DNA of 51,544 nucleotides from a virus: IMG/VR virus record IMGVR_UViG_3300011008_000187; one strand, 5' to 3'. Numbering within the stretch: position 1 is the stretch's first letter; each line of letters starts with the position of its first letter. Shown one piece after another: positions 4,515 through 51,544 of the stretch. Made by a program: the position numbers and the translations under genes. The notes beneath the pieces were generated by a model. It ran no database searches, was not told where the DNA came from, and saw nothing but the letters and a program-made list of their open reading frames with translations.

Positions 4515-4907
4515 ATGGTAACAGGCAGTTATATGGGCAGGGCGTTCACCGTGAGTTCGTGGCGCATCCTGACACCGAGCGACCTCAAAGGGAAAACGGG
4601 AAGCGACTGGGCGCTGCATGAGACGGTGGGACACAAGGCGCGGAGCCAATACCTTGCGCCGAAGCTCAAAAGCTATGCCCTTGACCTGCTGCTGCGTGCG
4701 CAGGATGGCGTAAGCCCGCGCAGCACACTGACACACTTTCAGCGGATGTCAGAGGCGGGCATGGCGGATTGGTTCGTGATCGGCGGCAGGCCGCTTTCCC
4801 CGTACCCGTTCAAAATCACCTCCGTTTCGGACGAGTGGAGCGCGGTGCTGAATGGCGGCGTGCTGGTGGAGTGCACGGTCAGCTTGACCATCGAGGAATA
4901 CCTGTAA
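4515..4907 (+). CDS. P2 GpU-like tail protein
   Basis: 130 aa. Pattern resembles the Phage_P2_GpU family (..HETVGHK..ALDLLLRA..VSLTIEEY). Confidence 0.5.
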   Translation: MVTGSYMGRAFTVSSWRILTPSDLKGKTGSDWALHETVGHKARSQYLAPKLKSYALDLLLRAQDGVSPRSTLTHFQRMSEAGMADWFVIGGRPLSPYPFKITSVSDEWSAVLNGGVLVECTVSLTIEEYL

Positions 4908-4919
4908 GGAGGCGAAGCC

Positions 4920-5231
4920 ATGTTATCGACTGTGCCGGTCATTGAGATCGAGGCCGGAAGCGCGACGGACAGCCGGACGGAGGAAATATACCGCAATCTG
5001 CAAGTGCTGTACGGCACCGTCGCCGGAGAACAGGCGCTTGACCGCGATTTCGGGATTGATCCCAGCATACAGGATTTCCCGTCGGAGAACGCCGAGGCGC
5101 TGCTGGCGGCGGAGTATGTGAGAAAGACGCAGCGATACGAGCCGAGGGCGCGTGTCAGCTATGTGTCTTTCGACAAGGAAGATAACCCGGTAGGACAAAT
5201 CAAGCCAAAGGTGGTGATCGAAATTGTCTAA
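4920..5231 (+). CDS. Baseplate wedge protein, GPW/gp25-like
   Basis: 103 aa, located immediately upstream of the J-like gene, with gp25-like conserved spacing (..G...DRDFGID..). Confidence 0.7.
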   Translation: MLSTVPVIEIEAGSATDSRTEEIYRNLQVLYGTVAGEQALDRDFGIDPSIQDFPSENAEALLAAEYVRKTQRYEPRARVSYVSFDKEDNPVGQIKPKVVIEIV

Positions 5232-6387
5232 CATCAGCCAACTGGCCAACGTGCCGGAAATCAGCTTCATCGAGAACATGACCTTGCAGGAGACGGAGGA
5301 GCTGGTCAAAGAAACCTATATCCGTGCGTACAAGGAAAAATTCGGCGTGGAGCCGGAGCTTGGCGACGCGGACACAAAGCCCCTGCTGATGAAAGCGTTT
5401 TCCTATCTGACCTATCAGGTCATGCAGTATATCGACGCAAAGGGCAGGGCGGAGCTGCTGAAAACCTCCACGGCGGACGCGCTGGAGGCGCTGGGCGCTC
5501 TGTTCGGATTGGAGCGGCAGGAAAGCACGCGGGCGATTGCCACGGAGCGGTTCAGCCTCGCGGAAGCGCGGGCCGACACCGTGGCCGTTCCCGCAGGCAC
5601 AAGAGTGAAAACCGCGAGCGGGCGCTACTTCAACACGCTGGACTATGCGGAGATCGCGCCGGGAGACACCTATGTGGACGTGACTGTGCAGGCGGAGGAA
5701 CCGGGGACGGAAAGCAGCGGCATCCTTACAGGCGTTATCAATCTGCTGGTCGATCCCATCCCGTATATCGCAAGCGTAGAGAACACGGGGCCGAGCACCG
5801 GCGGGCTTGACGCGGAGGACGACGACAGCCTGACGGAGCGCATCTATCTGGCCCCGTCGAAATTCTCCTGCGCTGGGCCGCGTGACGCCTACGAATACTA
5901 TGTGCGCGAGTGGCGCAGCGACGTGGCCGACGTGAAGATCACAAGCCCGTCAGCCTGTGTTATCGCCATCTACTTTACGATGGACGATCCAGATACCGGC
6001 ATCCCGCGCCTGCCGACGGACACGGAGCGGACGAGCCTTGCGGCTTATTTGAGTGGCGAGACGATCCGCCCGCTGTGCGATCAGGTGGGATGCTATGAGC
6101 CGGAGGAAGTGGATTACTCCATCAACATCACATACAAGATCGCCAGCAGCGACCAAGCCAGCGTCGGCACCATTCAGGAGAAGATCGCGGCGACGGTGGC
6201 AGACTTCAAGAAGTGGCAAAGGACGCTGGGGCGGGACATCAATCCCACGGAGCTGATTTACCGCATCCGGGCGGCGGGGGCAAAGCGCGTGACCGTGACA
6301 GCCCCGACGGACATCACCGTGACGAGCGTGCAGCTTCCGAAATGCACCGGCACGACGGTGACATACGGAGGTCTGGAAGATGATTAA
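5224..6387 (+). CDS. Baseplate J-like protein
   Basis: 387 aa. The TTG start overlaps the previous stop. Baseplate_J-like sequence and position. Confidence 0.8.
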   Translation: MSNISQLANVPEISFIENMTLQETEELVKETYIRAYKEKFGVEPELGDADTKPLLMKAFSYLTYQVMQYIDAKGRAELLKTSTADALEALGALFGLERQESTRAIATERFSLAEARADTVAVPAGTRVKTASGRYFNTLDYAEIAPGDTYVDVTVQAEEPGTESSGILTGVINLLVDPIPYIASVENTGPSTGGLDAEDDDSLTERIYLAPSKFSCAGPRDAYEYYVREWRSDVADVKITSPSACVIAIYFTMDDPDTGIPRLPTDTERTSLAAYLSGETIRPLCDQVGCYEPEEVDYSINITYKIASSDQASVGTIQEKIAATVADFKKWQRTLGRDINPTELIYRIRAAGAKRVTVTAPTDITVTSVQLPKCTGTTVTYGGLEDD

Positions 6388-7204
6388 AAGTCTGCGGGAG
6401 GCACGGATCGTTGACGGCGTGCCCCGCATCGTCGCCGGGCAGGAGTGGGTGCAGGCGCTTTCCGAGGCGCTGGGCGTCCTGCATGAAAAGACGCTGGACT
6501 TTGCGGACGCGAGCCAGATTTACACGGCGCTGGACACAGCGCCGGAGGATGTTCTGGACGCGCTGGCCGTCAACTGGAAAATCGACTGGTACGACACGGG
6601 CTATACCGTGGCGCAGAAACGCAGGATCGTCAAGACCGCCCTGACCGTGCGGCGGCTGATGGGCACCGTGCGGGCCGTCAAGCTGCAAGCGGACGCCATA
6701 TATCCGGGCACCGAAGTGGAGGAATGGTTCGACTACGGCGGCGACGCGGGCTATTTCCGCCTGTTTGTGAACATCACGGACAGTTCGGAAGAAAACCCAA
6801 TGATCGTCATGCCGCCGGAGGAAATCGAGCGGCGGCTTGTAACGGCAAAGCGGTGGAGCGCACACATGGAGAGTTTTTCTTACATGGTGCGTCACGCGCT
6901 GCTGCTGGGCGCAAAAGCGGAGCGGTGGGCCGTGTGTCCGCCCGTCTGCGGGACGATCTACTGCGGGACACATTGGGAGCCGTCCACGCTGGGGTACAGC
7001 GAGGGCGCGACAGTCCTTGCAAACGCGGGGCCGGAGGCGTTCCACGTTTCACCGGAGCTGACGGGCACGCTGCCGCAAAACGCGGTTGCGGCCTACACCG
7101 TATGCGGCGGCATGGTGAGCGGCGGCGCGACGGCGGGCTACGCCGTGGCGGGCACACCGGCGGGAGAGACGCAGGAGTGCGGCACGTTGCCGGAGGAGGC
7201 GTGA
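6380..7204 (+). CDS. Tail protein I-like (P2 gpI / XkdU-like)
   Basis: The N-terminus (..ALAVNWKIDWYD..KRRIV) is typical of the gpI family, and the gene follows J. Confidence 0.7.
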   Translation: MIKSLREARIVDGVPRIVAGQEWVQALSEALGVLHEKTLDFADASQIYTALDTAPEDVLDALAVNWKIDWYDTGYTVAQKRRIVKTALTVRRLMGTVRAVKLQADAIYPGTEVEEWFDYGGDAGYFRLFVNITDSSEENPMIVMPPEEIERRLVTAKRWSAHMESFSYMVRHALLLGAKAERWAVCPPVCGTIYCGTHWEPSTLGYSEGATVLANAGPEAFHVSPELTGTLPQNAVAAYTVCGGMVSGGATAGYAVAGTPAGETQECGTLPEEA

Positions 7205-7736: not shown

Positions 7737-8171
7737 ATGTATGCACGCACCTACTGGGTGGATCACGTCACCGATCAGCACGGAGAAGTGATCCAGCAGG
7801 GCACCCTTTTGGATCAGGCCCATTTCAACAACATTGAAAAGGGCCTGTCCGATCAGTCGCTTGCGGCTGCGTTTATGCAGTTCCGCGCCATTCAGGAAAG
7901 CTACGAGCTGACGGACGAGCTGCACACCGTCACGCTGGGAACCACCGGCAGCAAGTGGCCGTTCAACAACAGGGCGGAAACCGTGGCGCTGTCGCAGCTC
8001 CGTGAGAGTGAGAACTACGGCGTGGAGGTCAATGTGCTGTCCTACAGCGGCGGCCTGCTTGGGCACGTCAAAGTCATTGACCGGGCGGCCAACGGCTTCA
8101 AGCTGCTGCACGACGGCAGCGCAACCAGCGTAAAGGTAAACGTCCGCGTGAGCGGCGGCCTTATCAATTAA
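7737..8171 (+). CDS. Tail-fibre-like protein
   Basis: The N-terminus (YWVDHV..GT.LDQAHFNNIEKG) resembles conserved tail-fibre N-termini. RBS is GGGAGGAGGG. Confidence 0.55.
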   Translation: MYARTYWVDHVTDQHGEVIQQGTLLDQAHFNNIEKGLSDQSLAAAFMQFRAIQESYELTDELHTVTLGTTGSKWPFNNRAETVALSQLRESENYGVEVNVLSYSGGLLGHVKVIDRAANGFKLLHDGSATSVKVNVRVSGGLIN

Positions 8172-8536: not shown

Positions 8537-9625
8537 ATGAGTTTTGAAGCTGCGGAGCTGGCCCTGAAAACCGTTTGCCCCGGCAACGTGTTTTTATATG
8601 ACGACAAGGAAATGCCGTCCACTTTCGTGTACATCCCGAAGTTCCGGCTGTGTGACGTGCTTTCCACGGAGGACACCACCATTCACCCCGCGTTCCGCGT
8701 CGGCGGCGTGGAAATCGACGGGTTCTATTTCGGGAAGTTCCAGACCCATCACTACAACAGCCGGGCCTATTCCCTCCCCGGCGAAGACCCCAGTGCCAAC
8801 GCGACGCTTGACACGTTCGTGGCCTGCGCCCGCGCCAAGGGCGGCAACTTCCACGAGATCACGAATGCGGAGTGGGCCGCCGTCGCGCTCTGGTGCCACA
8901 AGAACGGCACCGAGCCTTACGGCAACAACAACTACGGCAAGGACAGCCGCGAGACGCTTTACAAGGCGATCCCCACCACCAAGAGCAGCGGCCAGACAAA
9001 CCATGTCGCCACCGGCACCGGCCCCATCACTTGGAGCCACGACCGCACGCTGGGCGGCATTTGGGACATGAACGGCAACGTGTCCGAGTGGTGTACCGGC
9101 CTGCGTCTGGTCAAGGGCGAGGTGCAGGTGATCGTTGACAACAACGCCGCCGATCCCACCGCCGACCTGTCCGCCACGTCCGCCGCGTGGATGGCAATTA
9201 ACGCCGCCGCGACCGGCTGGGCCGATCTCTTTATCGAGCCGGACGGCTCCGGCACCACCAGCGGCAGCGTGAAGCTGGATTATGTCAGCAGCAAGTGGAA
9301 GTGGGACACCACCATTTCCTCCAGCTCCGACAGTTCGCGCAACTGCGCGTTCAAGGACATCACCGCCTCTGCCAACATTGGCGACACGGCCAAGCTGCTG
9401 CTGATGGCCCTCGCGCTGCTGCCCGACACCGCCCTGATCGGGGACAACATCGACGCCACCTATGGCGGCGATTACTTCTATGCCAACAATGAGGCAGCGG
9501 AACGGTGCCTCTGTCGCGGCGGCAACTGGCACGGCGGGGCCAACTACGGCGTTTTCTACGCGAACTTGATCATCGCCCGTTCCGACTCCGGCGCGGGCAT
9601 CGGGGGCCGCTCCGCTTCGTATTGA
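8537..9625 (+). CDS. DGR target protein 1 (FGE/C-type-lectin-fold, probable receptor-binding protein) with C-terminal VR
   Basis: The last 39 codons match the TR apart from adenine-site changes. The C-terminus CRGGNWHGGANYGVFYANL..GGRSA is typical of DGR targets. Confidence 0.9.
   Translation: MSFEAAELALKTVCPGNVFLYDDKEMPSTFVYIPKFRLCDVLSTEDTTIHPAFRVGGVEIDGFYFGKFQTHHYNSRAYSLPGEDPSANATLDTFVACARAKGGNFHEITNAEWAAVALWCHKNGTEPYGNNNYGKDSRETLYKAIPTTKSSGQTNHVATGTGPITWSHDRTLGGIWDMNGNVSEWCTGLRLVKGEVQVIVDNNAADPTADLSATSAAWMAINAAATGWADLFIEPDGSGTTSGSVKLDYVSSKWKWDTTISSSSDSSRNCAFKDITASANIGDTAKLLLMALALLPDTALIGDNIDATYGGDYFYANNEAAERCLCRGGNWHGGANYGVFYANLIIARSDSGAGIGGRSASY
9502..9617 (+). repeat. DGR variable repeat VR1
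   Basis: 116 nt aligned without gaps to TR 10174-10289. There are 12 mismatches, and all fall at TR adenines. Confidence 0.9.
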
Positions 9626-9655
9626 TCCACTGTACACTGATCCCTGACGCACTGA

Positions 9656-9677
9656 CTGTCGAGCGATAGCGAGACAG
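9656..9677 (+). promoter_or_regulatory. Post-VR1 hairpin (candidate DGR target-recognition hairpin/cruciform)
   Basis: ctgtc-gagc-gata-gcga-gacag. The same structure follows VR2 with a compensatory base-pair change. Confidence 0.6.
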
Positions 9678-9697
9678 ACGCAACAGGACAATTCCTG

Positions 9698-9723
9698 CCG
9701 CCCGCGCCGACCGGCGCGGGCGG
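9698..9723 (+). other. GC-rich 11-bp-stem hairpin between target 1 and avd
   Basis: ccgcccgcgcc gacc ggcgcgggcgg, a perfect inverted repeat with no T-run. Confidence 0.5.
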
Positions 9724-9752
9724 CGGCTGGGATCGGGAAAGGAGGGAAAGCC

Positions 9753-10139
9753 ATGCAGGGAGAGCAGAAGCCGGAGAGCAGCTATAAGCCGTTTGAGGTC
9801 AAGGAGAAAATCGGCGAAATGATCCGCTACGGCAGGCCGCTGACAAAGCAGTTCAGCCGGAAAGACCGCGACCTTGCGGACGAAATGCGGGCGTCTATGC
9901 TGCGGATGTATCACCTTGCCGTGGAGATCGAAAAGAAATACTACCGCAAGACCACCACGCAGGAGCTTGACGTTGAATTGGAATGGCTGCGGCATCTGGT
10001 GAGGATGGCGTCGGACAAGGACTATTGCGGGCCGAAATTCTCCCCGCCCCTTTCCGTTCATCAATACGAGGTGTGGTCAAGGTACAACGCGGAGATCGGC
10101 AACATGCTGGGCGGATATATCAAATCCCTCCAGCGTTAG
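9753..10139 (+). CDS. avd: DGR accessory variability determinant (Avd)
   Basis: 128 aa, basic and helical. Lies between target and TR, the canonical DGR position and size. Confidence 0.8.
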   Translation: MQGEQKPESSYKPFEVKEKIGEMIRYGRPLTKQFSRKDRDLADEMRASMLRMYHLAVEIEKKYYRKTTTQELDVELEWLRHLVRMASDKDYCGPKFSPPLSVHQYEVWSRYNAEIGNMLGGYIKSLQR

Positions 10140-10173
10140 CCGCTCTCCGCTTCCTTTTGGGAATAGGCCGACC

Positions 10174-10289
10174 ACGGTGCCTCTATCGCGGCGGCAACTG
10201 GAACAACGGGGCCAACAACGGCGTTTTCTACGCGAACTTGAACAACGCCCGTTCCAACTCCAACGCGAACATCGGGGGCCGCTCCGCTT
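10174..10289 (+). repeat. DGR template repeat (TR)
   Basis: Adenine-rich (many AAC codons) copy of VR1 and VR2. Ends in the GC-rich block atcgggggccgctccgctt that is shared by all three repeats. Confidence 0.9.
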
Positions 10290-10472
10290 TTCGTCTACAC
10301 ATTCCGTTCGGCGGAAGTCCTGCGCCTGACAAGTGGGTTATGCCTCAAGGGGCATGATCGGTGTGCAGACTAAAAGGGGCCTATTAACCGTTCCCGCGAG
10401 GGCGGGAAAAAATGTGAATTGCCGTGGAGACGGAAACGCCACACACGGCACAGGCAGGAGATTAAAAACAGC
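10174..10472 (+). ncRNA. Probable DGR RNA (TR plus structured spacer upstream of RT)
   Basis: Three hairpins lie between TR and the RT start: 10302-10316, 10340-10355 and 10391-10408. Extent is inferred from the BPP-1 paradigm. Confidence 0.4.
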
Positions 10473-11663
10473 ATGAGCGAGATCACAACGATTGTCAACG
10501 CATGGGCGGTTGTGTGTTGCTTTGGCTGGCTGATCGAGGCGTTTCGGAACGCACGCAAGGGCAAGAGATACCGGGCCGAGGTCATGGCCTTTACCGCGCA
10601 TCTGGAGGATTACCTGCTTATCATTCAGGCGGGCATGATCGCGGGAGACTATGAGCTGGGGCCATATCGCAAGCTGTGGGTATTCGTGCCGAAGAAGCGC
10701 CTCGTTATGGCGCTGCCGTTCCCGGACAGGATCGTGCAATGGAGCCTGTATCTCTATCTCAACCCGATATTCGACAGGCTGATGATCGAGGACAGCTACG
10801 CTTGCAGGAAAGAAAAAGGGAGCCACAAGGCGGCAAAGCGCCTGCAATACTGGATGCGGCAGGTGGACAGGAAGCCGGGGCCGGGATGGTACGTCCTGAA
10901 ACTGGATATATCCAAATACTTCTACCGCATCCATCATGAAAAGCTGCTGGCAATTCTGGCGCGGCGCGTGAAAGACCCGGACATGATGGCATTTCTCCGC
11001 GCTCTGGTGAACAGCCGCGTGGAGCCTTTCGGCTTACCACGCGGGAAGAAGCCGGAGGACATCACGGCGGACGAATGGCTTTACGACGTGGGTATGCCCA
11101 TCGGCAATCTCACGTCGCAGATGTTCGCCAATATCTACCTGAACGAGCTGGATCAGTTTTGCAAGCACAAGCTCAAAATCCATTATTACATCCGCTATAT
11201 GGACGACGTGATTATCATCGGCCCGGACAAGGAAACGCTGAAAGCGTGGAAAGCGAAGATCGAGGCGTTTCTGTGGGACGAGCTGGCGCTTGACCTGAAC
11301 GACAAGACCAGCATCCGGCCTATGCGTCAGGGCGTGGAGTTCGTCGGCCTGCGGATTTGGCCCACGCACATGAAGCTGCGGAAAAGCACCGTGCGGCGGA
11401 TCAAGAACGAGGTGCGCAAATTCAGTGAACGGTATGCCGCTGGAATTTACAGCCGGGAAGAATTTGACCGGCGGATCGCCAGCGTCAGGGGGATGCTGGA
11501 TCATGTGGAGAGTGCGAGCCTGCGCGGACGGCTGAACGAGATTTACCGGGCGGAGCTAAAAAAAGCAGCGGAAAGAAAACTGCGAGAGGAGGCGGAGCAT
11601 GAGCCATTTGCAGATCATCGAAAATCTGGAAATCGTGACGGAGCTGCAAGCAAAGGCGATTAA
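10473..11663 (+). CDS. DGR reverse transcriptase
   Basis: Motifs PFPDRIVQ, IGNLTSQ and YMDD. The ATG at 10473 has AGGAG 12 nt upstream; the ORF-track start at 10419 is less likely. Confidence 0.9.
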   Translation: MSEITTIVNAWAVVCCFGWLIEAFRNARKGKRYRAEVMAFTAHLEDYLLIIQAGMIAGDYELGPYRKLWVFVPKKRLVMALPFPDRIVQWSLYLYLNPIFDRLMIEDSYACRKEKGSHKAAKRLQYWMRQVDRKPGPGWYVLKLDISKYFYRIHHEKLLAILARRVKDPDMMAFLRALVNSRVEPFGLPRGKKPEDITADEWLYDVGMPIGNLTSQMFANIYLNELDQFCKHKLKIHYYIRYMDDVIIIGPDKETLKAWKAKIEAFLWDELALDLNDKTSIRPMRQGVEFVGLRIWPTHMKLRKSTVRRIKNEVRKFSERYAAGIYSREEFDRRIASVRGMLDHVESASLRGRLNEIYRAELKKAAERKLREEAEHEPFADHRKSGNRDGAASKGD

Positions 11664-13994: not shown

Positions 13995-14074
13995 ATTCTC
14001 ACATTCGAGCGGCGCGGCGGAACGGGAAACCGACACCGCCGCGCTGGGGTTAAGGCATGAAAGGAGGAATACAC

Positions 14075-15142
14075 TTGTCACGGATGCCATTTAAGCACCT
14101 GACAAAAACGGATCGCCTGCGCATAGAACGCTGGCGCAATCAGGGGATGAAGCCCAAAGATATTGCCGGGAAGCTGCGCGTGCATATCTCCACGATCTAC
14201 CGGGAATTGAAGCGCGGAGAATATGAACGCTTGAACGGGCAGACATGGGAAATGGAGACGGCATACAGCCCGGACATTGCGGAGGCCCGCTATCAAGAAA
14301 ACCTGCGGAACAAGGGGCCGGAGCTGAAAATCGGCGCAGACCATGAGCTTGCCAAGTGGATTGAAGATACCATAATAGACCGCGAGTGCAGCCCGGCGGC
14401 GGCGCTGGGGTATGCGGAGATCGACGGCAAACAGTTTTCCGTCACCCTGTCCGCGCCCACAATTTACAGCTACATTCATAAGGGCGTATTCCTCCGGCTG
14501 ACTATGGCGGATTGTCCGCGCCACGGGACGCAGAAGAACGCATACCAGCACGTCGAGAAGAAAGAACCGGCCCGCGCTCCCGCCGGGGAGAGCATCGACA
14601 ACCGCCCGGAGGAGGTCAAGGATCGCAAGGTATTTGGGCACTGGGAAATGGACACCGTTTACAGCGCAAAGAACAAAGGCCGGGCCGTCCTGCTGACCAT
14701 CACGGAGCGGAAAACGCGGAAAGAAATCATTGTGCTGTTGCCGAACCGTAAGGCGGAGACGATCACGCGGGCCGTCAATGCGCTGGAACGGAAGTATGGA
14801 GCGGTCAACTTCCGCGCCATCTTCAAGAGCATCACCGTGGACAATGGATCGGAGTTTGCGGCGGCGGAGGATTTGGAAAAGTCCTGCATCAACAAGACGC
14901 TGCCCCGCACCAAGGTCTATTATGCGCACCCTTATTCCTCGTGGGAGCGGGGCACCAACGAGAATAACAACGGCATGATCCGGCGGAAGCTGCCAAAGGG
15001 CACCGTGTTTGAGAACGTCAGCGCGGCGGACGTGGCGGCGGTGGCCGACTGGATGAACGGCTACCCGCGCCGGGTGCTGGGTTATGCGTCCTCGGAAATG
15101 GCGTATCAAGCGGAGCTGCGGGCGCTGGGGATCGCGGCATGA
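14075..15142 (+). CDS. IS30-family DDE transposase/integrase
   Basis: N-terminal HTH (IAGKLRVHISTIYRELKRG). Catalytic motifs GHWEMDTV, TVDNGSEF and ERGTNENNNGMIRR. Start is ambiguous: TTG 14075, ATG 14084 or ATG 14057. Confidence 0.85.
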   Translation: MSRMPFKHLTKTDRLRIERWRNQGMKPKDIAGKLRVHISTIYRELKRGEYERLNGQTWEMETAYSPDIAEARYQENLRNKGPELKIGADHELAKWIEDTIIDRECSPAAALGYAEIDGKQFSVTLSAPTIYSYIHKGVFLRLTMADCPRHGTQKNAYQHVEKKEPARAPAGESIDNRPEEVKDRKVFGHWEMDTVYSAKNKGRAVLLTITERKTRKEIIVLLPNRKAETITRAVNALERKYGAVNFRAIFKSITVDNGSEFAAAEDLEKSCINKTLPRTKVYYAHPYSSWERGTNENNNGMIRRKLPKGTVFENVSAADVAAVADWMNGYPRRVLGYASSEMAYQAELRALGIAA

Positions 15143-15495: not shown

Positions 15496-15756
15496 ATGAA
15501 AGAGTATAAACACATCATGCTTGCGGAGCGGCAGCAGATCGAGGAAATGTACGGCGCGGGCATGATGCCGGTCGAGATCGCGGCCAAGATTGGCGTACAC
15601 CACGCCACCATTTACAACGAGCTGCGCCGGGGTGACACCGGCAAGATCGACAGCAACGGACGGATCGGGTACAGCGCGGAGCTGGCGCAGAGCAGAGTTT
15701 ACAACCGGCGGCGGCTGGCGCAGGCCGTGAGAAGTCAGGGAGGGATTGGAGAATGA
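15496..15756 (+). CDS. Stand-alone IS30-transposase-like N-terminal HTH protein (86 aa)
   Basis: Same pattern as the N-terminus of the 14075 transposase (KH..L...R..IE......IA.K..VH..TIY.EL.RG) but no catalytic domain. RBS is AAAGGAGG. Confidence 0.65.
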   Translation: MKEYKHIMLAERQQIEEMYGAGMMPVEIAAKIGVHHATIYNELRRGDTGKIDSNGRIGYSAELAQSRVYNRRRLAQAVRSQGGIGE

Positions 15757-16738: not shown

Positions 16739-17007
16739 ACAGTATGGATATGGATTTGCGCAATAATGAGCGGGCAAAAGAAATGGCGCGGGAAAGGCGC
16801 TGGACAGCACCGGGGAAATCCCGCGTAGAGCATCCGAAGTATGGCAGCGTCATTGTGCCGCACTGTTCAAACCTCGCCGCCATTGAGAACGCGGCGGAGT
16901 ATTGGGGATGTGACCTTATGGAGATCATCAGCACAGCGGAGTGCTGGGCGTGCGATCAGTCCTTGCCGGTGGTAAGGCCGAAAGAGTTTTGCAAAGGGAT
17001 TAGGTGA
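16735..17007 (+). CDS. Hypothetical protein
   Basis: ORF fills the gap. Start is uncertain (GTG 16735 or ATG 16744). Confidence 0.45.
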   Translation: MNSMDMDLRNNERAKEMARERRWTAPGKSRVEHPKYGSVIVPHCSNLAAIENAAEYWGCDLMEIISTAECWACDQSLPVVRPKEFCKGIR

Positions 17008-18614
17008 AAATGGGAATGGGCAGACAGACGAGCTTTTTTGATGTGCTTTTCGTGGACAGCTTTGCGGGCGGCGGAGGTGCAAGCACCGGCATTGAAATGG
17101 CTACCGGGCACCCTGTAGATATTGCCATCAATCACGACGAAAGCGCCATTATGATGCACAAACGCAATCACCCGTACACAGAGCATTACAGGGAGGATAT
17201 ATGGCAGGTTGACCCGATCAAGGCGACGCACGGCCAGAAAGTCCGCCTCGCGTGGTTCTCACCTGACTGCAAGCATTTCAGCAGAGCAAAGGGAGCGGCC
17301 CTTGTCGATAAGCACATACGCGGCCTTGCGTGGGTAGTCCTCCGCTGGGCGGGGCTGGTACATCCTGACGTTATCATGCTGGAAAACGTGCCGGAGTTCG
17401 TGACGTGGGGGCCGGTGCGTAAGGGAAAGCCCGTCAAAAGCAAAGCAGGACAGACCTATAAAAAGTGGCACAAGCAGCTTTCCGACCTCGGCTATAAGAT
17501 TGAGAGCCGCGAGCTATGCGCGGCGGATTATGGAGCGCCGACCATCAGAACACGCTTTTGCCTGATTGCCAGACGGGACGGAAAGCCGATTGTCTGGCCG
17601 GAACGGACGCACGCCCCGGCTGGAAGCGAAGAAGTGCGGACGGGAAAATGCAGGCCGTGGAGAATGGCGGCGGAGATTATCAACTGGGGGCTGCCCTGCT
17701 ATTCCATCTTTGAGACAAAAGCAGAAATTAAGGAAAAGTTCGGCGTGAACACAGTGCGGCCATTGAAGCCAAACACGATGCGGCGGATCGCGCGGGGGCT
17801 GGATAAGTTCGTTATCAAGACGGCAAGCCCTTTCATCATGTGCAACAACGCCAACAACGTGCCGCATGGACTGGACGAGCCAATGCCGACCATAACAACG
17901 GGAAACAGAAACTTTCTTGTGGCACCGACGCTCATTCAATACCACTCCGAACAACATGAGCGGGAGGCGCGGGGTCAAATCGTCAACGAGCCGCTGCGGA
18001 CGATTGACGCCGCGAACAGGTACGGGCTGACCGTGGCATTTATGCAGAAGTATTTTTCCGGCGTGGACGGTTCAGACCTGCGGAAGCCGGTGCCGACGAT
18101 TACGGCGGTGGATCACAATTCCCTGACAGCGGTACATATAGCAAAATTCAAAGGCACGGACAAGGGGCAGAGCATCCGGGAGCCATTGCAAACTATCACG
18201 GCGAGCGCCGGAGAATTTGCCTTGATAGAGACAACAATACAAAGGTATGCGGAGCAGCAGGGGCTTAAATACTGGCCCCGCGTGCGCGAAATGCTCAATC
18301 AATACTGCGGCTATACGCTGGCGGATGATGAAATACTGCTGTTCGGAATTGCGGATAGCTGGTATTTCATTGCAGACATCGGACTGCGGATGCTCACGCC
18401 GCGCGAGCTGTACGACGCAATGGGATTTCCCCATGACTACATCATAGACCGAGACGTGACCGGGAGGCCAATCAGCCGAGCGGATCAGGTGGCCCGCTGC
18501 GGGAACGCGGTATGCCCGGCGGTGTCGGAGGCAATGGTGCGGGCGAACCTGCCGGAGTGCGCGAAGAAGAAATACGGGAGCATGGACGAGCTGCACGAGG
18601 CTATGGCGGTATAG
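17004..18614 (+). CDS. DNA (cytosine-5)-methyltransferase
   Basis: Motif I FVDSFAGGGGAS, motif IV SPDCKHFS, motif VI ENVPEF and a C-terminal GNAVCP. Confidence 0.85.
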   Translation: MKMGMGRQTSFFDVLFVDSFAGGGGASTGIEMATGHPVDIAINHDESAIMMHKRNHPYTEHYREDIWQVDPIKATHGQKVRLAWFSPDCKHFSRAKGAALVDKHIRGLAWVVLRWAGLVHPDVIMLENVPEFVTWGPVRKGKPVKSKAGQTYKKWHKQLSDLGYKIESRELCAADYGAPTIRTRFCLIARRDGKPIVWPERTHAPAGSEEVRTGKCRPWRMAAEIINWGLPCYSIFETKAEIKEKFGVNTVRPLKPNTMRRIARGLDKFVIKTASPFIMCNNANNVPHGLDEPMPTITTGNRNFLVAPTLIQYHSEQHEREARGQIVNEPLRTIDAANRYGLTVAFMQKYFSGVDGSDLRKPVPTITAVDHNSLTAVHIAKFKGTDKGQSIREPLQTITASAGEFALIETTIQRYAEQQGLKYWPRVREMLNQYCGYTLADDEILLFGIADSWYFIADIGLRMLTPRELYDAMGFPHDYIIDRDVTGRPISRADQVARCGNAVCPAVSEAMVRANLPECAKKKYGSMDELHEAMAV

Positions 18615-20953: not shown

Positions 20954-21670
20954 GTGCTGGAATTAAACCGCTGCTACAACATGGATTGCATGGAGGGTAT
21001 GGCGCAATTCCCGGACGGATTTTTCGATCTGGCCGTGGTCGATCCGCCGTATGGCGGAGCGGGCGGAGACTTCAAGCGCAGCGATAAGTCACGGTTCGGC
21101 GGGCGGTTCGATCAGTACAAGCCCGGAAATGCTGCGGGGGGGTACTCTGAAAGCGGCATTTACAGAACCGGCGGCGGATGGGCGAGGCAGTACGCCAAAA
21201 AAATCATTGGCTGGGATCATGCGCCCGGCCCGGAGTATTTCAAAGAGCTTTTCCGAGTGAGCAAGCAGCAAATCATATGGGGCGGGAATTACTTTGACCT
21301 GCCGCCAAACCGCTGCTTTATCGTCTGGAATAAAACGAACATCCCGGAAAACTTCTCAATGGCTATGGCGGAATACGCATGGTGCAGCTTCAACGACAAC
21401 GCAAAGATCGTGGCTTGCAGTTCCGCCAGAAAAGGCGAGTGCTATCACCCAACGCAAAAGCCGGTGGCGCTCTACACATGGATTTTTCAGACCTACGCCA
21501 AGGCGGGCGATAAAATCCTCGACACCCATTTGGGGAGCGGGAGCAGCCGGATTGCGGCATATGAGGCCGCGCTGGATTTCGTGGGCTTTGAGATCGACCC
21601 GGACTATTTCAAGACAGAAGAAGAACGGTTCAGGGAACACACAAGCCAAGTGAGCTTGTTCCATCTATAA
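20954..21670 (+). CDS. DNA N6-adenine/N4-cytosine methyltransferase (beta class)
   Basis: DPPYG motif, HPTQKP, and LDTHLGSGSS AdoMet motif. Confidence 0.85.
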   Translation: MLELNRCYNMDCMEGMAQFPDGFFDLAVVDPPYGGAGGDFKRSDKSRFGGRFDQYKPGNAAGGYSESGIYRTGGGWARQYAKKIIGWDHAPGPEYFKELFRVSKQQIIWGGNYFDLPPNRCFIVWNKTNIPENFSMAMAEYAWCSFNDNAKIVACSSARKGECYHPTQKPVALYTWIFQTYAKAGDKILDTHLGSGSSRIAAYEAALDFVGFEIDPDYFKTEEERFREHTSQVSLFHL

Positions 21671-22278: not shown

Positions 22279-23475
22279 ATGGCAAAGGTACGCTATACCT
22301 ATTTCGGCCTCGGCATGGCAGCGGAGGGATCGGAGAAGTTCGCGGCGGATCAGGCGGCGGCTTTTCTGGCCTACGCCGAGCGGGACAGCATCAGGAGCGT
22401 GGCGGCGGATGCACCGGCGGAGGTGCCCGTGCCGCTGACGGAGCCGGAGCGGGTGCCCGGCGGAATGGAACACGACGTTGTGGCGATCTACGACAACGCC
22501 GGTATTCCGTCCATCATGCACCGCTTCCGCAGGATCACCGACAAGGAGCTGTTCGGCGGGAGCGACAAGGTACATCCGGCCTTTATCATCGGCGGCGAGG
22601 TCTATGACGAGATTTTTATATCCGTCTATCAGAACACCATGATAAACGGCAAGCCTTACAGCCTGCCCATGGCGGAGCCGGTTTACAACATCACGCAGGA
22701 CGATTTTGCGGAAGCCTGTTTCTCCAAAGGCGAGGGCTGGCATTGCATCACCGCGCCGGAATGGGGCCTACTGGCGGACACCTGCGCCATGCTGGGCACG
22801 ATGCCGCACGGGAACACGAATTGCGGGAAGTGGCACGGAGACGACGCGGAAACGGGCGTGCTGATCGGAGGAGGCCCCAAGACGCTGACCGGGAGCGGCC
22901 CGGCGACGTGGACGCACAACCACAAGCCAACCGGCGTGCATGATCTGTGCAGCAATCTGTATGAGCATTGCCGGGGCGCACGGATCAAGGACGGCGCTTT
23001 GCAGGCGGCGGAGAACAACGACGCCGCGCTGCCGGAAACCGACCTGTCCGAGAACGGCGACGGCTGGCGGCCCATCGTGGACGACACCGGGCGGCCCCTG
23101 TTCGTCTCCGTGGACGGCGGGAAAATCACCATCACGCCGGATCAGGAGATCGAGCGGGACTATAACGGCTGCCGCTGGGCGGACGTGACCGTGGAAAGCG
23201 AGAGCGAACAGCTCAAAGAGCTTGCTTTCTTTGCCGGGGAGCCGGACGCCTATTGCTTCATGGACAGCACCGAGGGCGAGTATGTCCTCTATCGCGGCGG
23301 CAGCTGGGCCGGCGGGGCCGGCAGCGGCGTTTTCTGCGCGGCCTTGGGCAGCCCGCGCTCCTACTCCAACGCGGTCATCGGGGGCCGCTCCGCTTATTTC
23401 AGGAAGCACAGCACACTGAACCCTGACACACTGACCGTCGAGCGGGAGCGAGACGGAAAGGAGGCCGGGGCATGA
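22279..23475 (+). CDS. DGR target protein 2 (paralogue of target 1) with near-C-terminal VR2
   Basis: Central region is paralogous to 8537-9625 (HPAF..GG, ITAPEWG). The C-terminus YRGGSWAGGAGSGVFCAAL..IGGRSA aligns to the TR. Confidence 0.85.
   Translation: MAKVRYTYFGLGMAAEGSEKFAADQAAAFLAYAERDSIRSVAADAPAEVPVPLTEPERVPGGMEHDVVAIYDNAGIPSIMHRFRRITDKELFGGSDKVHPAFIIGGEVYDEIFISVYQNTMINGKPYSLPMAEPVYNITQDDFAEACFSKGEGWHCITAPEWGLLADTCAMLGTMPHGNTNCGKWHGDDAETGVLIGGGPKTLTGSGPATWTHNHKPTGVHDLCSNLYEHCRGARIKDGALQAAENNDAALPETDLSENGDGWRPIVDDTGRPLFVSVDGGKITITPDQEIERDYNGCRWADVTVESESEQLKELAFFAGEPDAYCFMDSTEGEYVLYRGGSWAGGAGSGVFCAALGSPRSYSNAVIGGRSAYFRKHSTLNPDTLTVERERDGKEAGA
23286..23395 (+). repeat. DGR variable repeat VR2 (remote)
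   Basis: 110 nt aligned without gaps to TR 10180-10289. There are 17 mismatches at TR adenines and 3 at non-adenine positions (gcc cgt in TR versus ccg cgc in VR2). Confidence 0.8.
23435..23456 (+). promoter_or_regulatory. Post-VR2 hairpin (counterpart of 9656-9677)
   Basis: ccgtc-gagc-ggga-gcga-gacgg. The T-A pair of the VR1 hairpin is replaced here by C-G. Confidence 0.6.
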
Positions 23476-31421: not shown

Positions 31422-31446
31422 TTCGTGATCCTCCTGTTTTGGTTTT

Positions 31447-31512
31447 GGCCTGCCATCATCGGCGGCGGGCGGCCATTCCCGCCGGACGGAGCCGGGCGGC
31501 CCCGTTTCGGCT
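31447..31512 (-). repeat. Structured intergenic repeat, copy 1
   Basis: 66 bp, differing from copy 3 at 1 position. Contains two GC-rich hairpins. Confidence 0.8.
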
Positions 31513-31514
31513 TG

Positions 31515-32432
31515 TTATGCGAGCTTCAAAACGCGGCGGGCGGCGCGTTCTGCGTTCTCGGTAAGCTGGCGCTGCCATGCCTGATTTTTTGGCGACCAGC
31601 GGAAGCCCTCGCCTTTCAGGGCCTCGCGCGTCTCCGCGTCCGGGATCGCGTCGAATACGATTTGCAGCCGGTTTAACTCCACGTTGCGGACGATCTGCCC
31701 GCCGTCAAACTCCGTCGCGCTGTCGGGCGCGTCCTGCCGGGCTTGCAGCTTGTCCAGTTCCTCCAGCCGGGCCGCCGTGCGCTTGATCCTCTCGCGGATG
31801 CTGGATAGCTCATAATCGGGATAGGGCTTGTATAGCTCCGGACGCGGTGTGTGCTCTTTTACGCTGGCGTCCAGCCGGGCGGCGGCCTCGTCGGTGACGC
31901 CGGGGCAGCCCTTGAAAGTCTTGTGCTTCCTGTAATGGGCGTTTACCTCCTTGGCGCGGGCCTGCTTCTTTTGGAGCTTTTCGAGGCGCTCCGTCAAAAT
32001 CTCGCGGGCGTGGGGATCTGTCAGGTCAACGGGGCCGGTGCCGATTTCGGTTATTCTGTCGCGGATCGCCTGAATTTCGTTGTACTCTTTCCAAAGCGCA
32101 TCCTCGCGGCCCTGCTGCTTTTCGTGCTTGCGTCCAAAGTGTTTTCCGTAGTTGCTGCCGCCGGTGATAAAGGACGAGGGACAGCTTGCCGTGTTGCGGT
32201 TGTGGGCGTTTGTCCAGTCCGCGAGGCGCTTTGCGTAGCGGTCAACGGCGGCGTCGATGCGGTCATGATAGAACGGGCTGACGCGCTTCTTGTGCTGCTC
32301 GGCAATCTCGGCGGCCCCGTCCACGGCGGCGCGGTATTCCGCCGTTGCGCTGCCGGGCTTGTAGTCGCTCATGGAATACGCCTCCAGCGCCCTGCGTGCG
32401 GTCTGTTCGTCGATTTCGTAATAGTTCGGCAT
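31515..32432 (-). CDS. DUF3560-like protein
   Basis: The C-terminus RLQIVFDAIPDAETREALKGEGFRWSPKNQAWQRQLT is typical of DUF3560 (plasmid/ICE/phage). The ATG at 32432 follows CAGGAGG. Confidence 0.55.
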   Translation of the reverse strand: MPNYYEIDEQTARRALEAYSMSDYKPGSATAEYRAAVDGAAEIAEQHKKRVSPFYHDRIDAAVDRYAKRLADWTNAHNRNTASCPSSFITGGSNYGKHFGRKHEKQQGREDALWKEYNEIQAIRDRITEIGTGPVDLTDPHAREILTERLEKLQKKQARAKEVNAHYRKHKTFKGCPGVTDEAAARLDASVKEHTPRPELYKPYPDYELSSIRERIKRTAARLEELDKLQARQDAPDSATEFDGGQIVRNVELNRLQIVFDAIPDAETREALKGEGFRWSPKNQAWQRQLTENAERAARRVLKLA

Positions 32433-32997
32433 GGTGTAAACCTCCTGTTTTGGTTTTGGTGTTTGGCCTGCCATCATCAGCGCCGGGAGGCCAGTTCCGG
32501 CGGACGGGCCGCGCGGCCCGTTTCGGCTCCGTGCGGGAGAGCGGCGCGGCGGGCGTCTCGGTGGCCTGCTCCGGCGCGGCCTGCTCCATCACGGGAGCGG
32601 GAGCGACGGCGGGCGTTTCGTCGCTTCCCTGCTCCACCGGCGCGGCGGGCGTGGTGCCCACGCTGCCGGTTTCGTCGTCGCTGCCGTCGGTGCGCCTGAC
32701 CTGCGAAACGTGGAACAGGTGCGACAGCTTTTTGTAATAATGCGGATCGTCGGGCAGCTCCTCCCCGGCGGCCTCCGCCGCTTCCCGCAGGGCCTTGGCC
32801 GGGCGCGTCGTGTATTTCCAGAGGTCAACGTGAAGCATGGCCTTTTCGCCCTTTTTCACGCTGTAGCCGCGGGCTTTCCACTCTTGGAACGTGTGCAGCG
32901 GGATCATGTGCCCGGAGGCAAGGATCGCGTTTACCTGCTCCTCGGTGTAAATGCCCTGTTCAACGGCGGCACTGCAAATGATTTCGTTGTTTGTCAT
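32263..32997 (-). CDS. ArdC-N-like (ssDNA-binding/antirestriction-type) domain protein; 3' end doubtful
   Basis: N-terminal ..IPLHTFQEWKARGYSVKKGEKA.. resembles the ArdC N-domain. The ORF has no stop before repeat copy 2 and runs 170 nt into the next gene. Confidence 0.45.
   Translation of the reverse strand: MTNNEIICSAAVEQGIYTEEQVNAILASGHMIPLHTFQEWKARGYSVKKGEKAMLHVDLWKYTTRPAKALREAAEAAGEELPDDPHYYKKLSHLFHVSQVRRTDGSDDETGSVGTTPAAPVEQGSDETPAVAPAPVMEQAAPEQATETPAAPLSRTEPKRAARPVRRNWPPGADDGRPNTKTKTGGLHHAELLRNRRTDRTQGAGGVFHERLQARQRNGGIPRRRGRGRRDCRAAQEARQPVLS
32465..32528 (-). repeat. Structured intergenic repeat, copy 2 (diverged)
   Basis: Same architecture as copies 1 and 3, with a compensatory G-C to C-G change in hairpin A. 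Confidence 0.7.
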
Positions 32998-33031
32998 GGT
33001 GATAACCTCCCGTTAAAAATTCGTTGTGTTT

Positions 33032-33097
33032 GGCCTGCCATCATCGGCGGCGGGCGGCCATTCCCGCCGGACGGGGCCGGGCGGCCCCGTTTCGGCT
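33032..33097 (-). repeat. Structured intergenic repeat, copy 3
   Basis: 66 bp, differing from copy 1 at 1 position. Confidence 0.8.
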
Positions 33098-50012: not shown

Positions 50013-51544
50013 AACTGACAATCAAAATCAGCGGCAAGGTCGATAAGAGCCTGAGCACGGCCATTTCGCAGGCGACCGGGCAGGTGTCCGGGATCGCTAC
50101 CACGTTTAGCCACATCGGGACTGTCGGCCTTGCCGCTATGGGCGCTCTTGCCACGGGAACCGTCGCCGCGATTGCCGACTGCACCAAGGCGGCGGAGGGC
50201 TTTGAGCAGAGCATGGCCGACGTGGTGAAATACGTCGATGGTCTGGCGGACGCGAGCGGCAGGATAAGCGACGCATTAGCGCCGGAGACGGCGGGCACCA
50301 TTCTGGACGGCAACACCTACGCCGAGAACTACGCCATAATGACGGACGCGCTGCTGGATTTGAGCACGCAAATCCCCATGACGGCGGACGACCTGACGCG
50401 CCTCGCCGCTGCTGCCGGACAGTCCGGCAAGAGCCTTACCGACTTAATCCAGTACGACGAGGCCGGGAATATCACCGGCTTTTTACGCGACGTTGCCATG
50501 ATGGGCACCGCCATGGACATATCGGCGGATCAGGCGGGCGACTGGGCGGCCAAGTGGGAAAAAGCGTTCAACATGAACCATGATGAAATCATGGTGCTTG
50601 CTGACCAGATCAACTATTTGGGCGCGAACAGCGCAACGACGGCGGCAGAGATCGCGGAAGCGGTCAACGGCGCGGCCAGTCTCGGCCAGATCGCAGGCGT
50701 GGACGTGGCAACGACGGCGGCGCTGGCGGACGCAATGCTGGCGACCGGCGTAAACAGCGGGCGCGTGGCGACGGCCATCAAGCGCACATTCACCAACATG
50801 AGCAAGGGCAGCAGCGCGACCAAGGCCATGAAAGACCAATGGGAAGAACTGGGCTTCACGGCGGAGGGCGTGGCGCTTGCCATGCAGCAGGACAGCATCG
50901 GCACGCTGAACGCCGTATTTGAAGCTATCGGCAATCTGCCGGAGGAACGACAGGTAGCCGCGCTATCCACCCTGTTTGGTCAGTGGGCCATTGAGGGCAC
51001 GGCAAAGGTTGTCGGGAACATGAGCACGTTCACCGACGCGCTGGCAATGGTCAGCGATCCGGCGCTGTACGGCGGAAGCATGGAGCGGGAATTTATCATC
51101 AAGTCCAGCACCACACAGGCAATCGACACGATGATGGCAAATTCCGTGGAAGCTCTAAAAATAGATTTCGGGACTGAATTTCTGCCGGTCAAAAAAGAGT
51201 TCAGTCTTATGATGATCGATCTGATGAATACGCTCCGGGACAATATGCCGGAGCTGAAAGAGCTGGGATCGACACTGGCGGAGATCGCGGCAAAGGGCGT
51301 CGCAGCATTGTCCGAGGCTCTGCCAAAGGCGCTGCCGTATATCAAGCAGGCGCTTGACTATGTGAACGAACACGGGCCGGAGCTGGCAAGCACCATCGGG
51401 AAGATCGCGGCGGTGCTGGTGGGCATGAAGTTTGCCCCGGCCATTGAGGGCGTGCTGGGCGGCGTCGGTTCTCTGCTGTTCGGCAAGAGCACCGGCGGCG
51501 GCATCGGCTCCCTGCTGGGCATCGGCGGAGCGGCGGCGGGCGGC
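49991..51544 (+). CDS. Tail tape measure protein, N-terminal part (runs off the window end and continues at base 1)
   Basis: ATG at 49991. Contains a TP901-type tape-measure core (..LGANSATTAAEIAEAVNGAASLGQIAGV..). No stop before 51544. Confidence 0.85.
   Translation, partial: MAKSKALELTIKISGKVDKSLSTAISQATGQVSGIATTFSHIGTVGLAAMGALATGTVAAIADCTKAAEGFEQSMADVVKYVDGLADASGRISDALAPETAGTILDGNTYAENYAIMTDALLDLSTQIPMTADDLTRLAAAAGQSGKSLTDLIQYDEAGNITGFLRDVAMMGTAMDISADQAGDWAAKWEKAFNMNHDEIMVLADQINYLGANSATTAAEIAEAVNGAASLGQIAGVDVATTAALADAMLATGVNSGRVATAIKRTFTNMSKGSSATKAMKDQWEELGFTAEGVALAMQQDSIGTLNAVFEAIGNLPEERQVAALSTLFGQWAIEGTAKVVGNMSTFTDALAMVSDPALYGGSMEREFIIKSSTTQAIDTMMANSVEALKIDFGTEFLPVKKEFSLMMIDLMNTLRDNMPELKELGSTLAEIAAKGVAALSEALPKALPYIKQALDYVNEHGPELASTIGKIAAVLVGMKFAPAIEGVLGGVGSLLFGKSTGGGIGSLLGIGGAAAGG
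51446..51544 (+). repeat. 99-bp terminal redundancy (identical to 1-99); circular-assembly overlap
   Basis: Base-by-base comparison shows identity. Confidence 0.95.

Follow-up and report, generated by a model that had tools for sequence, protein, structure and literature searches.

A diversity-generating retroelement with one template repeat and, very probably, two targets in a contractile-tailed phage related to Clostridium phage Saumur

The window analyzed here is the complete 51,544-nt stretch of the virus record IMGVR_UViG_3300011008_000187 (IMG/VR). Between positions 8537 and 11663 it carries, in this order, a target gene ending in a variable repeat (VR1), a gene for an accessory variability determinant (Avd), a template repeat (TR) and a gene for a reverse transcriptase (RT), which are the components of a diversity-generating retroelement (DGR). 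A second variable repeat (VR2) is found in a second target gene, far from this cassette. In prokaryotes and their viruses, no natural system other than DGRs is known to direct hypermutation at specific proteins, and gut phages are particularly rich in them. Very probably, the element is a complete and recently active DGR that diversifies two targets from one template, in a contractile-tailed Clostridia phage of about 51.4 kb related to phage Saumur. The genes and repeats of the system are the following.

8537-9625, + strand: target gene 1, 362 aa, TaqVP-type variable protein with a C-type lectin fold (phmmer, Foldseek, PHROG)
9502-9617, + strand: VR1, variable repeat at the 3' end of target 1
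9600-9617, + strand: adenine-free, GC-rich 3' end of VR1, similar to an initiation of mutagenic homing (IMH) sequence, TCGGGGGCCGCTCCGCTT, 18 nt
9753-10139, + strand: avd, 128 aa (Pfam, PHROG, NCBIfam)
10174-10289, + strand: TR, with 26 adenines in 116 nt
10473-11663, + strand: RT gene of DGR type, 396 aa, with PIGNLTSQ and YMDD motifs (PDB, NCBIfam, tblastn)
22279-23475, + strand: target gene 2, 398 aa, paralog of target 1 (phrog_2889, E 5e-86; BLASTP against target 1, E 2e-37)
23286-23395, + strand: VR2, remote second variable repeat, 13.1 kb from the TR

The TR and VR1 align without gaps over 116 nt and differ at 12 positions, each of which is an adenine in the TR, exactly as described in the first-pass annotation of this DNA. 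The hypergeometric probability that 12 out of 12 mismatches fall on the 26 adenines by chance is 1.4e-9, and the similarity between the two repeats ends abruptly on either side. One of the changes turns a TAT codon into TGT, and the eleven others are found in eight AAC codons, which have become CAC, GGC, TAC, ATC, ATC, GAC, GGC and GGC. VR1 had been placed at the last 39 codons of its gene; it lies, more precisely, within the last 41. Read in the frame of the target, the TR contains 11 AAC codons and one each of TAT, TAC and ATC. By computation, A-to-N changes of the TR never give rise to a stop codon, and about 5.5e14 protein variants are possible.

A whole-window repeat search revealed a third copy of the repeat at 23280-23395, of which approximately 23286-23395 is taken as VR2. 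Compared with the TR from TR position 10180 on, VR2 has 17 mismatches at adenines and three at the non-adenine positions 10247, 10249 and 10252. The 18-nt end TCGGGGGCCGCTCCGCTT is identical in the TR (10272-10289), VR1 and VR2 (23378-23395); it occurs exactly three times in the window, with no other site at up to three mismatches and 0.16 copies expected by chance. The presence of a third repeat copy with this identical adenine-free end indicates that one template serves two targets approximately 13 kb apart. As the two target proteins are only 33% identical, the identity of both genes to the non-coding TR over some 110 nt cannot be ordinary paralogy. The element had at first been taken to be confined to 8537-11663. 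The cassette does lie there, but the single target implied by those limits does not stand, since VR2 is outside that span.

Both trans-acting proteins that had been predicted from the letters were recovered. The 128-aa open reading frame (ORF) between target 1 and the TR is present, and three libraries match it to Avd, including Pfam bAvd (E 4e-20, 72.6 bits for a cut-off of 40) and the PHROG family annotated as Avd protein of DGR (E 1e-28). The ORF that ends at 11663, downstream of the TR, carries the IGNLTSQ and YMDD motifs of the RT; its start is most likely the ATG at 10473, which is also the start called in the sibling genome L179, rather than 10419. The best match of the RT in the PDB is chain A of 8ub7 (E 5e-50), followed, 30 orders of magnitude behind, by a group II intron RT (E 7e-19). 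Two long fragments of 8ub7 occur exactly in the genome of Bordetella phage BIP-1 (species Rauchvirus BPP1), and because they lie just downstream of the annotated VR1 of that phage, 8ub7 was identified as the Bordetella phage RT (bRT). A tblastn search of GenBank phages with the RT recovered Clostridium phage Saumur (53% identity), Bacillus phage BalMu-1 (49%), BIP-1 (36%) and VHML (34.5%), as well as crAss-like and Bacteroides phages. From its motifs, structure-sequence matches and profile scores, the RT appears to be of the DGR type.

Other classes of RT were considered as well. The group II model TIGR04416 gave 122 bits for a cut-off of 300 (E 3e-35), and retron_St85 gave 50 bits for a cut-off of 235. 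The models of defense-associated RTs (DRT/UG), Drt2 to Drt5, all scored below their NCBIfam cut-offs, and the 396-aa protein has no extra domain. No intron or retron RNA was found in the Rfam search.

The match of target 1 to TaqVP (PDB 5vf4) extends over residues 19-360 (phmmer, E 9e-41), and the protein belongs to phrog_2889 (E 4e-105). An AlphaFold2 model of target 1, obtained from 63 homologs (pLDDT 84.7, pTM 0.89), was superimposed on 5vf4 by Foldseek with a template-modeling score (TM) of 0.83 (E 1e-31, 30% identity). A comparison with Mtd, TvpA and formylglycine-generating enzyme (FGE) had been proposed in the first-pass annotation. A lectin fold was indeed found, but TaqVP was the best match and those three proteins were weak ones. 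Membership in the Mtd family was rejected, with no sequence match and a Foldseek alignment restricted to the C-type lectin (CLec) core (TM 0.29, E 7e-3). The sequence match and the high TM for TaqVP, together with the weak match to Mtd, thus identify target 1 as a TaqVP-type variable protein rather than a homolog of Mtd.

The genes directly upstream of target 1 are not recognizably tail-fiber-like, as initially supposed, but baseplate genes of phage P2 type (gpW/J/I-like) followed by four small ORFs. Target 1 itself is found where P2 carries its tail-fiber gene, between the gpJ/gpI-like baseplate genes and the lysis genes. As it occupies that slot, which supports the assignment without proving it, and by analogy with Mtd of BPP-1, target 1 is most likely the receptor-binding protein. 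From the same position and analogy, we infer that the phage might switch its host range. Among the homologs of target 1 clustered at 90% identity, P0053, P0112 and P0095 comprise hundreds to approximately 13,800 distinct members, which are recorded on very few contigs. Such cluster sizes are what hypervariation by a DGR should leave behind in assemblies made at the read level.

Target 2 is encoded among methyltransferase and replication genes, outside of the structural module. Its orthologs form a group with 50-65% identity among relatives, as against approximately 30-35% to target 1, and the neighborhood consisting of a Zn-ribbon gene, target 2 and a phrog_24518 gene is kept in the relatives L017, L026 and L098. 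No close sibling of target 2 was present in IMG/VR (at most 58% identity), and a metagenome scan yielded one, L098. Judging from these sequence relationships, target 2 is a conserved paralog of target 1.

The activity of the system was addressed with sibling sequences, namely L004 from IMG/VR, L179 from Logan, the metagenome contig L098, and the proteins P0001-P0004. L004 is 99.15% identical to the window over 13.9 kb, with 118 differences. Its VR1 has 16 differences where 0.86 would be expected (P = 2e-15); 13 of them are at TR adenines, and the other three mirror changes in L004's own TR. Similarly, L179, which is 98% identical to the window, has a third TR allele and the same bases in its VR1. 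At the codons 10247-10252, the three TR alleles read GCC CGT, CCG CGC and CCG CGT, and since each is found in the VR1 of its own genome, in three genomes, they constitute sequence evidence for TR-to-VR transfer at non-adenine positions. When the TR of each sibling was compared with its own VR1, 15 of 15 and 19 of 20 mismatches were at adenines. P0001-P0004 share 93-96% identity with target 1, and nearly all of the differences are at positions encoded by AAC in the TR.

The same pattern was observed for VR2, where the approximately 95% identical L098 differs from the window at 16 positions, all of which are TR adenines (P = 3e-13). Among five pooled VR copies, 25 of the 25 TR-adenine positions vary, as opposed to 3 of the 85 others, all three of which are TR-allelic sites. 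The limitation of sibling polymorphism to TR-adenine positions, a test that had been proposed beforehand, was thus borne out at both VR1 and VR2. At the population level, the hotspots in the siblings and the copied TR alleles indicate that mutagenic retrohoming is evidently ongoing. A wider set of relatives was collected from IMG/VR through their RTs, with 80 kept out of 237 confirmed. Approximately 65 of these, those with enough flanking sequence, share the TR/VR arrangement, with mismatches essentially at adenines only, and several of the 80 carry a remote VR2.

The region around and downstream of the TR has the features of a structured DGR RNA, as follows.

10159-10169, + strand: upstream arm of a long-range duplex, GGGAATAGGCC, which ends 5 nt before the TR
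10290-10472, + strand: structured spacer of the DGR RNA, 183 nt, from the TR to the RT gene (RNAalifold)
10320-10325/10363-10368: spacer helix P1 (RNAalifold)
10337-10346/10349-10358: spacer helix P2 (RNAalifold)
10378-10389, + strand: downstream arm of the long-range duplex, GGCCTATTAACC, which pairs with GGGAATAGGCC
10391-10408: spacer hairpin P4 followed by an A-run, directly after the downstream arm
10422-10426/10444-10448: spacer helix P5 (RNAalifold)

In an RNAalifold analysis of 29 family members, 20 of the 30 predicted pairs have changed in both partners and remain complementary, and the spacer is conserved in blocks. The duplex that brackets the TR is present in every relative and its arms covary, as in ACGGGTT/AATCCGT, GGGGAGCAAGCC/GGCTTGCTTCCC and GGGGGTTGTGCC/GGCGCAACTCCC. 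Matched arms have a mean energy of -20.3 kcal/mol, compared with -15.2 kcal/mol for mismatched ones (0 of 5000 permutations). The DGR RNA of BPP-1 has been described in a preprint as having a duplex that brackets the TR, a stem-loop and adenosines, with the same features predicted in 207 other DGRs (Handa et al., bioRxiv 10.1101/2023.10.23.563531). By comparison with that description, the duplex of the window corresponds to the "stop duplex" of these authors. Rfam has no family for DGR RNA, and its sole match nearby was a chance miRNA (E 0.14).

On the side of the target DNA, a family alignment was made of 120 nt around the VR 3' end, with 50 distinct VRs, both adjacent and remote, from the window and its IMG/VR relatives. 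It brought out two types of element downstream of the repeats.

9628-9655, + strand: array of spaced CTG motifs between VR1 and the hairpin (family alignment, column consensus)
9656-9677, + strand: target-recognition hairpin or cruciform after VR1, CTGTCGAGC-GATA-GCGAGACAG, with a GRNA loop
~23408-23434, + strand: CTG motifs between VR2 and the hairpin (family alignment)
23435-23456, + strand: target-recognition hairpin after VR2, CCGTCGAGC-GGGA-GCGAGACGG, in the C-terminal tail of target 2

All 50 aligned VRs have a GC-rich inverted repeat downstream. Its 4-nt loop is GATA, GGTA, GGGA, GACA or GAGA and begins 43-49 nt past the VR end across the family; there is no such hairpin after the TR. 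The hairpins after VR1 and VR2 differ by one compensatory change, from T-A to C-G. Between clades the stems vary widely and yet stay complementary, with a mean of -12.7 kcal/mol for matched arms and -5.4 kcal/mol for mismatched ones, and none of 5000 permutations of the arms reached the matched mean. Since single-sequence DNA folding of the regions downstream of the VRs gave unremarkable z-scores, the hairpin is backed by covariation and not by thermodynamic stability. Such a hairpin has been reported to be required for retrohoming in BPP-1, and phage DGRs are described as keeping it, at 4-34 bp from the VR, in the form of a GRNA loop on a GC stem of 7-10 bp (Guo et al., 2011; PMC3240598). Here the stem is found approximately 38 nt from the VR, slightly past the range given by that paper.

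The interval between the VR and the hairpin harbors three or four copies of (A/C)CTG at a spacing of 7-8 nt, at adjacent and remote targets alike. Throughout the lineage, which extends to RTs of 53% identity, these motifs are conserved to at least 90%, and Saumur has them as well (L084, 8018-8060). They are absent after the TR and from BIP-1, which represents the BPP-1 group. The array is non-coding after VR1 and within the C-terminal tail of the ORF after VR2, which argues that the conserved entity is a nucleic-acid element and not a peptide. Inspection by eye of the DGR RNA spacer revealed no CAGT repeats able to pair with the array. No mention of such an array was met in the portions consulted of the DGR literature cited here, and no literature search was aimed at it. 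The array might be an undescribed recognition determinant, such as a site for the Avd-RT ribonucleoprotein (RNP) or for a host factor, that acts beyond the IMH-like end and the hairpin, and target 2 might be a diversified non-structural protein instead of another receptor-binding one; taken jointly, these two proposals are tentative and rather doubtful.

Taken together, the DGR-type RT, Avd, the adenine-only mismatches on AAC codons, the lectin-fold target, the GRNA hairpin and the structured RNA uphold the interpretation of the locus as a DGR that was made from the sequence alone. The following mechanism may be proposed. The DGR RNA would be transcribed from just ahead of the TR as far as the start of the RT gene; as the covariation shows, it folds into the TR-bracketing duplex, the hairpins and the stem-loop with its A-run. 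By homology with bRT and Avd of the Bordetella phage, Avd and the RT would bind this RNA, reverse-transcribe the TR and misincorporate nucleotides opposite its adenines. The cDNA would then replace the VR of those genes that have both an adenine-free GC-rich end and a GRNA hairpin, that is, VR1 and VR2. The direction of this flow, from TR to VR, is shown by the TR alleles copied into VR1, and integration itself would proceed as in BPP-1. In this manner the 11 AAC codons and the three other adenine-containing codons can be recoded stop-free, which gives a TaqVP-like lectin fold approximately 5e14 variants of its ligand-binding face, and target 1, in its P2-like tail-fiber slot, would be the receptor-binding protein.

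Several points weigh against this account as a whole. In NCBIfam, Avd matches DivGenRetAVD (E 3e-22) with 78.9 bits, approximately 1 bit short of the equivalog cut-off of 80. An insertion of AA in the downstream arm of the duplex, at 10382-10389 (TATTAACC, compared with TATTTCC in L005), slightly weakens the pairing in the window; as L004 has it too, it is characteristic of the lineage rather than an error of sequencing. A cis-priming duplex between the TR and the spacer, and a priming nucleotide, were sought by eye and none could be assigned. Activity is deduced from few assembled siblings. Finally, some features of target 1 and of VR2 also speak against it, and they are best considered together with the explanations that they favor.

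It might be that the DGR is active and that target 1 is not receptor-binding, but recognizes a host or environmental ligand instead or functions outside of the virion. This possibility is rather unlikely. Target 1 has no recognizable fiber or shaft domain, its placement in the virion is deduced from its position, and the four small ORFs before it have no assigned function. Furthermore, its paralog target 2 has early, methyltransferase and replication genes as neighbors, and the ligand of TaqVP itself is given as unknown (PMC6328139). On the other hand, target 1 occupies, between the gpJ/gpI-like baseplate genes and the lysis genes, the slot in which P2 and pyocin-type tails canonically encode their fibers, it has the same position in Saumur and in many Clostridia prophages, and Mtd of BPP-1 provides a precedent for a receptor-binding DGR target.

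A second possibility concerns VR2, which might be the relic of a former target, with only VR1 still serviced, or the window might be a chimera of co-assembled strains. At TR positions 10247, 10249 and 10252, VR2 of the window has CCG CGC, which is the TR allele of L004 and is also found in VR2 of L098, and not the GCC CGT of its own TR and VR1. Judging by the relatives, CCG CGC is the older state, and its retention in VR2 implies that VR1 was rewritten after the TR of the window had changed and that VR2 was not. The lag may reflect either rarer homing into the remote site or an assembly that mixes strains. Moreover, the homology of VR2 to the TR begins 6 nt later than that of VR1. In the relative L034 the remote VR has decayed, with 13 mismatches at positions other than adenines, and the 99-nt overlap between the ends of the window makes a metagenomic assembly probable. 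Nevertheless, a relic or a chimera is improbable, as the adenine-only differences between the VR2 copies of the window and L098 imply that VR2 has diversified after the two lineages split. In addition, the 18-nt 3' end of VR2 is exact, its hairpin is intact with a compensatory change, and the ORF of target 2 is intact and belongs to a conserved ortholog group. A lag of one allele would be expected if homing into the remote site were simply rarer.

It is very improbable that the cassette as a whole is an inactive relic that looks intact and has preserved TR/VR differences from the past. In favor of this explanation, many prophage DGRs show no activity in the laboratory. Against it, a genome as close as L004 has its VR1 rewritten at 13 adenine positions, VR1 of three siblings reproduces non-adenine changes of the TR, and the ORFs, catalytic motifs and cis elements are all intact. 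Finally, the idea that the RT belongs to a group II intron, a retron or a defense-associated system and that the repeats are ordinary paralog similarity can be dismissed, because generic models such as TIGR04416 and several DRT/UG models do match the RT but far below their cut-offs and well behind bRT, no intron or retron RNA accompanies it, avd adjoins it, and the poorly conserved target proteins nonetheless share with the non-coding TR a segment whose differences are at adenines.

The genome that hosts this two-target DGR appears to be complete. The whole-window repeat search revealed an exact terminal direct repeat of 99 nt (1-99 = 51446-51544), and because the ends are identical, the window is considered to represent a complete phage genome of approximately 51,445 bp, circular or terminally redundant; the tape-measure gene wraps across the window ends. 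According to PHROG and Pfam, the genes are arranged as terminase, portal, protease, decoration and neck genes, then tail chaperone, tape measure and the P2-type baseplate. The four small ORFs, target 1, avd, the TR and the RT come next, followed by holin, endolysin, an IS30-type DDE transposase, DNA methyltransferases, target 2 and replication genes. The baseplate genes are located as follows.

4515-7204: P2-type baseplate genes (gpW/gp25, Baseplate_J, Tail_P2_I; PHROG/Pfam)

The gpI-like protein weakly resembles the pyocin protein Tri2 PA0619 (E 0.003). The PHROG search provided no annotation for the four small ORFs upstream of target 1, and a PDB sequence search with one of them (7737-8171) gave chance-level matches only. 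The block from the baseplate to the transposase recurs in prophages of many Oscillospiraceae and Lachnospiraceae, and the host is probably a member of the gut Clostridia. A scan of genome contigs with the endolysin met no near-identical prophage, the best match being 78% identical, in metagenome-assembled genomes (MAGs) of Oscillospiraceae, and the host is therefore assigned no finer than Clostridia. A megablast search with the cassette and target 2 against 50,697 GenBank phages gave no match, and relatives of both exist at the protein level or in metagenomes only.

Other features of the genome may be mentioned. The IS30-type DDE transposase (14057-15142; phrog_4646, E 1e-126; HTH_38 and rve) directly follows the lysis cassette, and a truncated paralog of it at 15496-15756 has the helix-turn-helix (HTH) part only. 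Since Saumur and many Clostridia prophages have it at the same place, the transposase is probably the integration enzyme of the phage and not an IS insertion. There are at least two DNA methyltransferases, one of C5 type (17004-18614) and one of N6/N4 type (20954-21670); the former is a variable accessory gene, since the sibling L098 is without the segment 17013-18832. Three type II hammerhead ribozymes (Rfam RF02276) are found on the minus strand at 31444-31512, 32462-32528 and 33029-33097, with scores of 49.6-50.1 bits for a gathering score of 37. They are intergenic in a minus-strand operon around the primase gene (31515-32477), coincide with a direct-repeat family of the window, and may have a part in processing a polycistronic transcript. 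A strong inverted repeat, GC-rich and without a T-run, lies between target 1 and avd at 9697-9727, CTGCCGCCCGCGCCG-ACC-GGCGCGGGCGGCGG. It may be a terminator or attenuator that separates expression of the target from that of the DGR RNA.

The window thus provides a clean natural example of a DGR, with a complete circular genome, cis and trans parts that can all be identified, and two targets in different modules. The TR allelic series, with non-adenine changes that can be traced into the VRs, represents sequence-level evidence of TR-to-VR flow, and the updated adjacent VR1 and lagging remote VR2 provide a relative clock. What goes beyond the ordinary is this allelic series, the lag of VR2, the conserved and possibly non-structural target 2 and the CTG array. 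In other respects the element belongs to a well-known system and is not of a new kind, and it leaves the general picture of DGRs unchanged; some 31,000 of them are cited in the introduction of the Handa et al. preprint (bioRxiv 10.1101/2023.10.23.563531).

Of the known systems, the prototype, the DGR of BPP-1 (mtd-avd-TR-brt), has the same gene order, adenine-specific mismatches on AAC codons and Avd, and its RT is homologous, with 36% identity to the brt region of BIP-1 (E 6e-48). It likewise has a GC-rich adenine-free VR end, a GC stem with a GRNA tetraloop, and a structured RNA with a TR-bracketing duplex. In contrast with BPP-1, the target in the window is TaqVP-like and not Mtd-like, and a second, non-adjacent target is present. 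The hairpin is located approximately 38 nt after the VR and not directly after it, with the CTG motifs in the gap, and the phage has a Gram-positive anaerobe as its host and a P2-like, contractile tail. TaqVP from the Thermus aquaticus prophage (5VF4) shares the whole-protein fold of target 1 and has its VR at the C-terminus, in a host of another phylum.

Clostridium phage Saumur (ON453901.1), reported to be an induced prophage of Enterocloster clostridioformis (PMC10197239), was compared over 16.8 kb. Synteny extends from the tape measure through the baseplate, small ORFs, target, Avd, TR, RT and lysis genes to the IS30-type transposase. Its TR/VR pair of 111 nt has 14 of 14 mismatches at adenines, and the VR is followed by the same CTG motifs and a GGTA-loop hairpin, with just 53% identity between the RTs and no similarity at the nucleotide level. 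As to the number of targets, phage DGRs have been described in which one target adjoins the DGR genes and a further one is found in the same prophage at a distance of up to 50 kb, and multiple targets are reported in 13% of DGRs (Wu et al., 2018; PMC5758913). As presented there, that arrangement is exactly the one found in the window, which adds to it a conserved ortholog group for target 2 and a visible lag in the TR allele.

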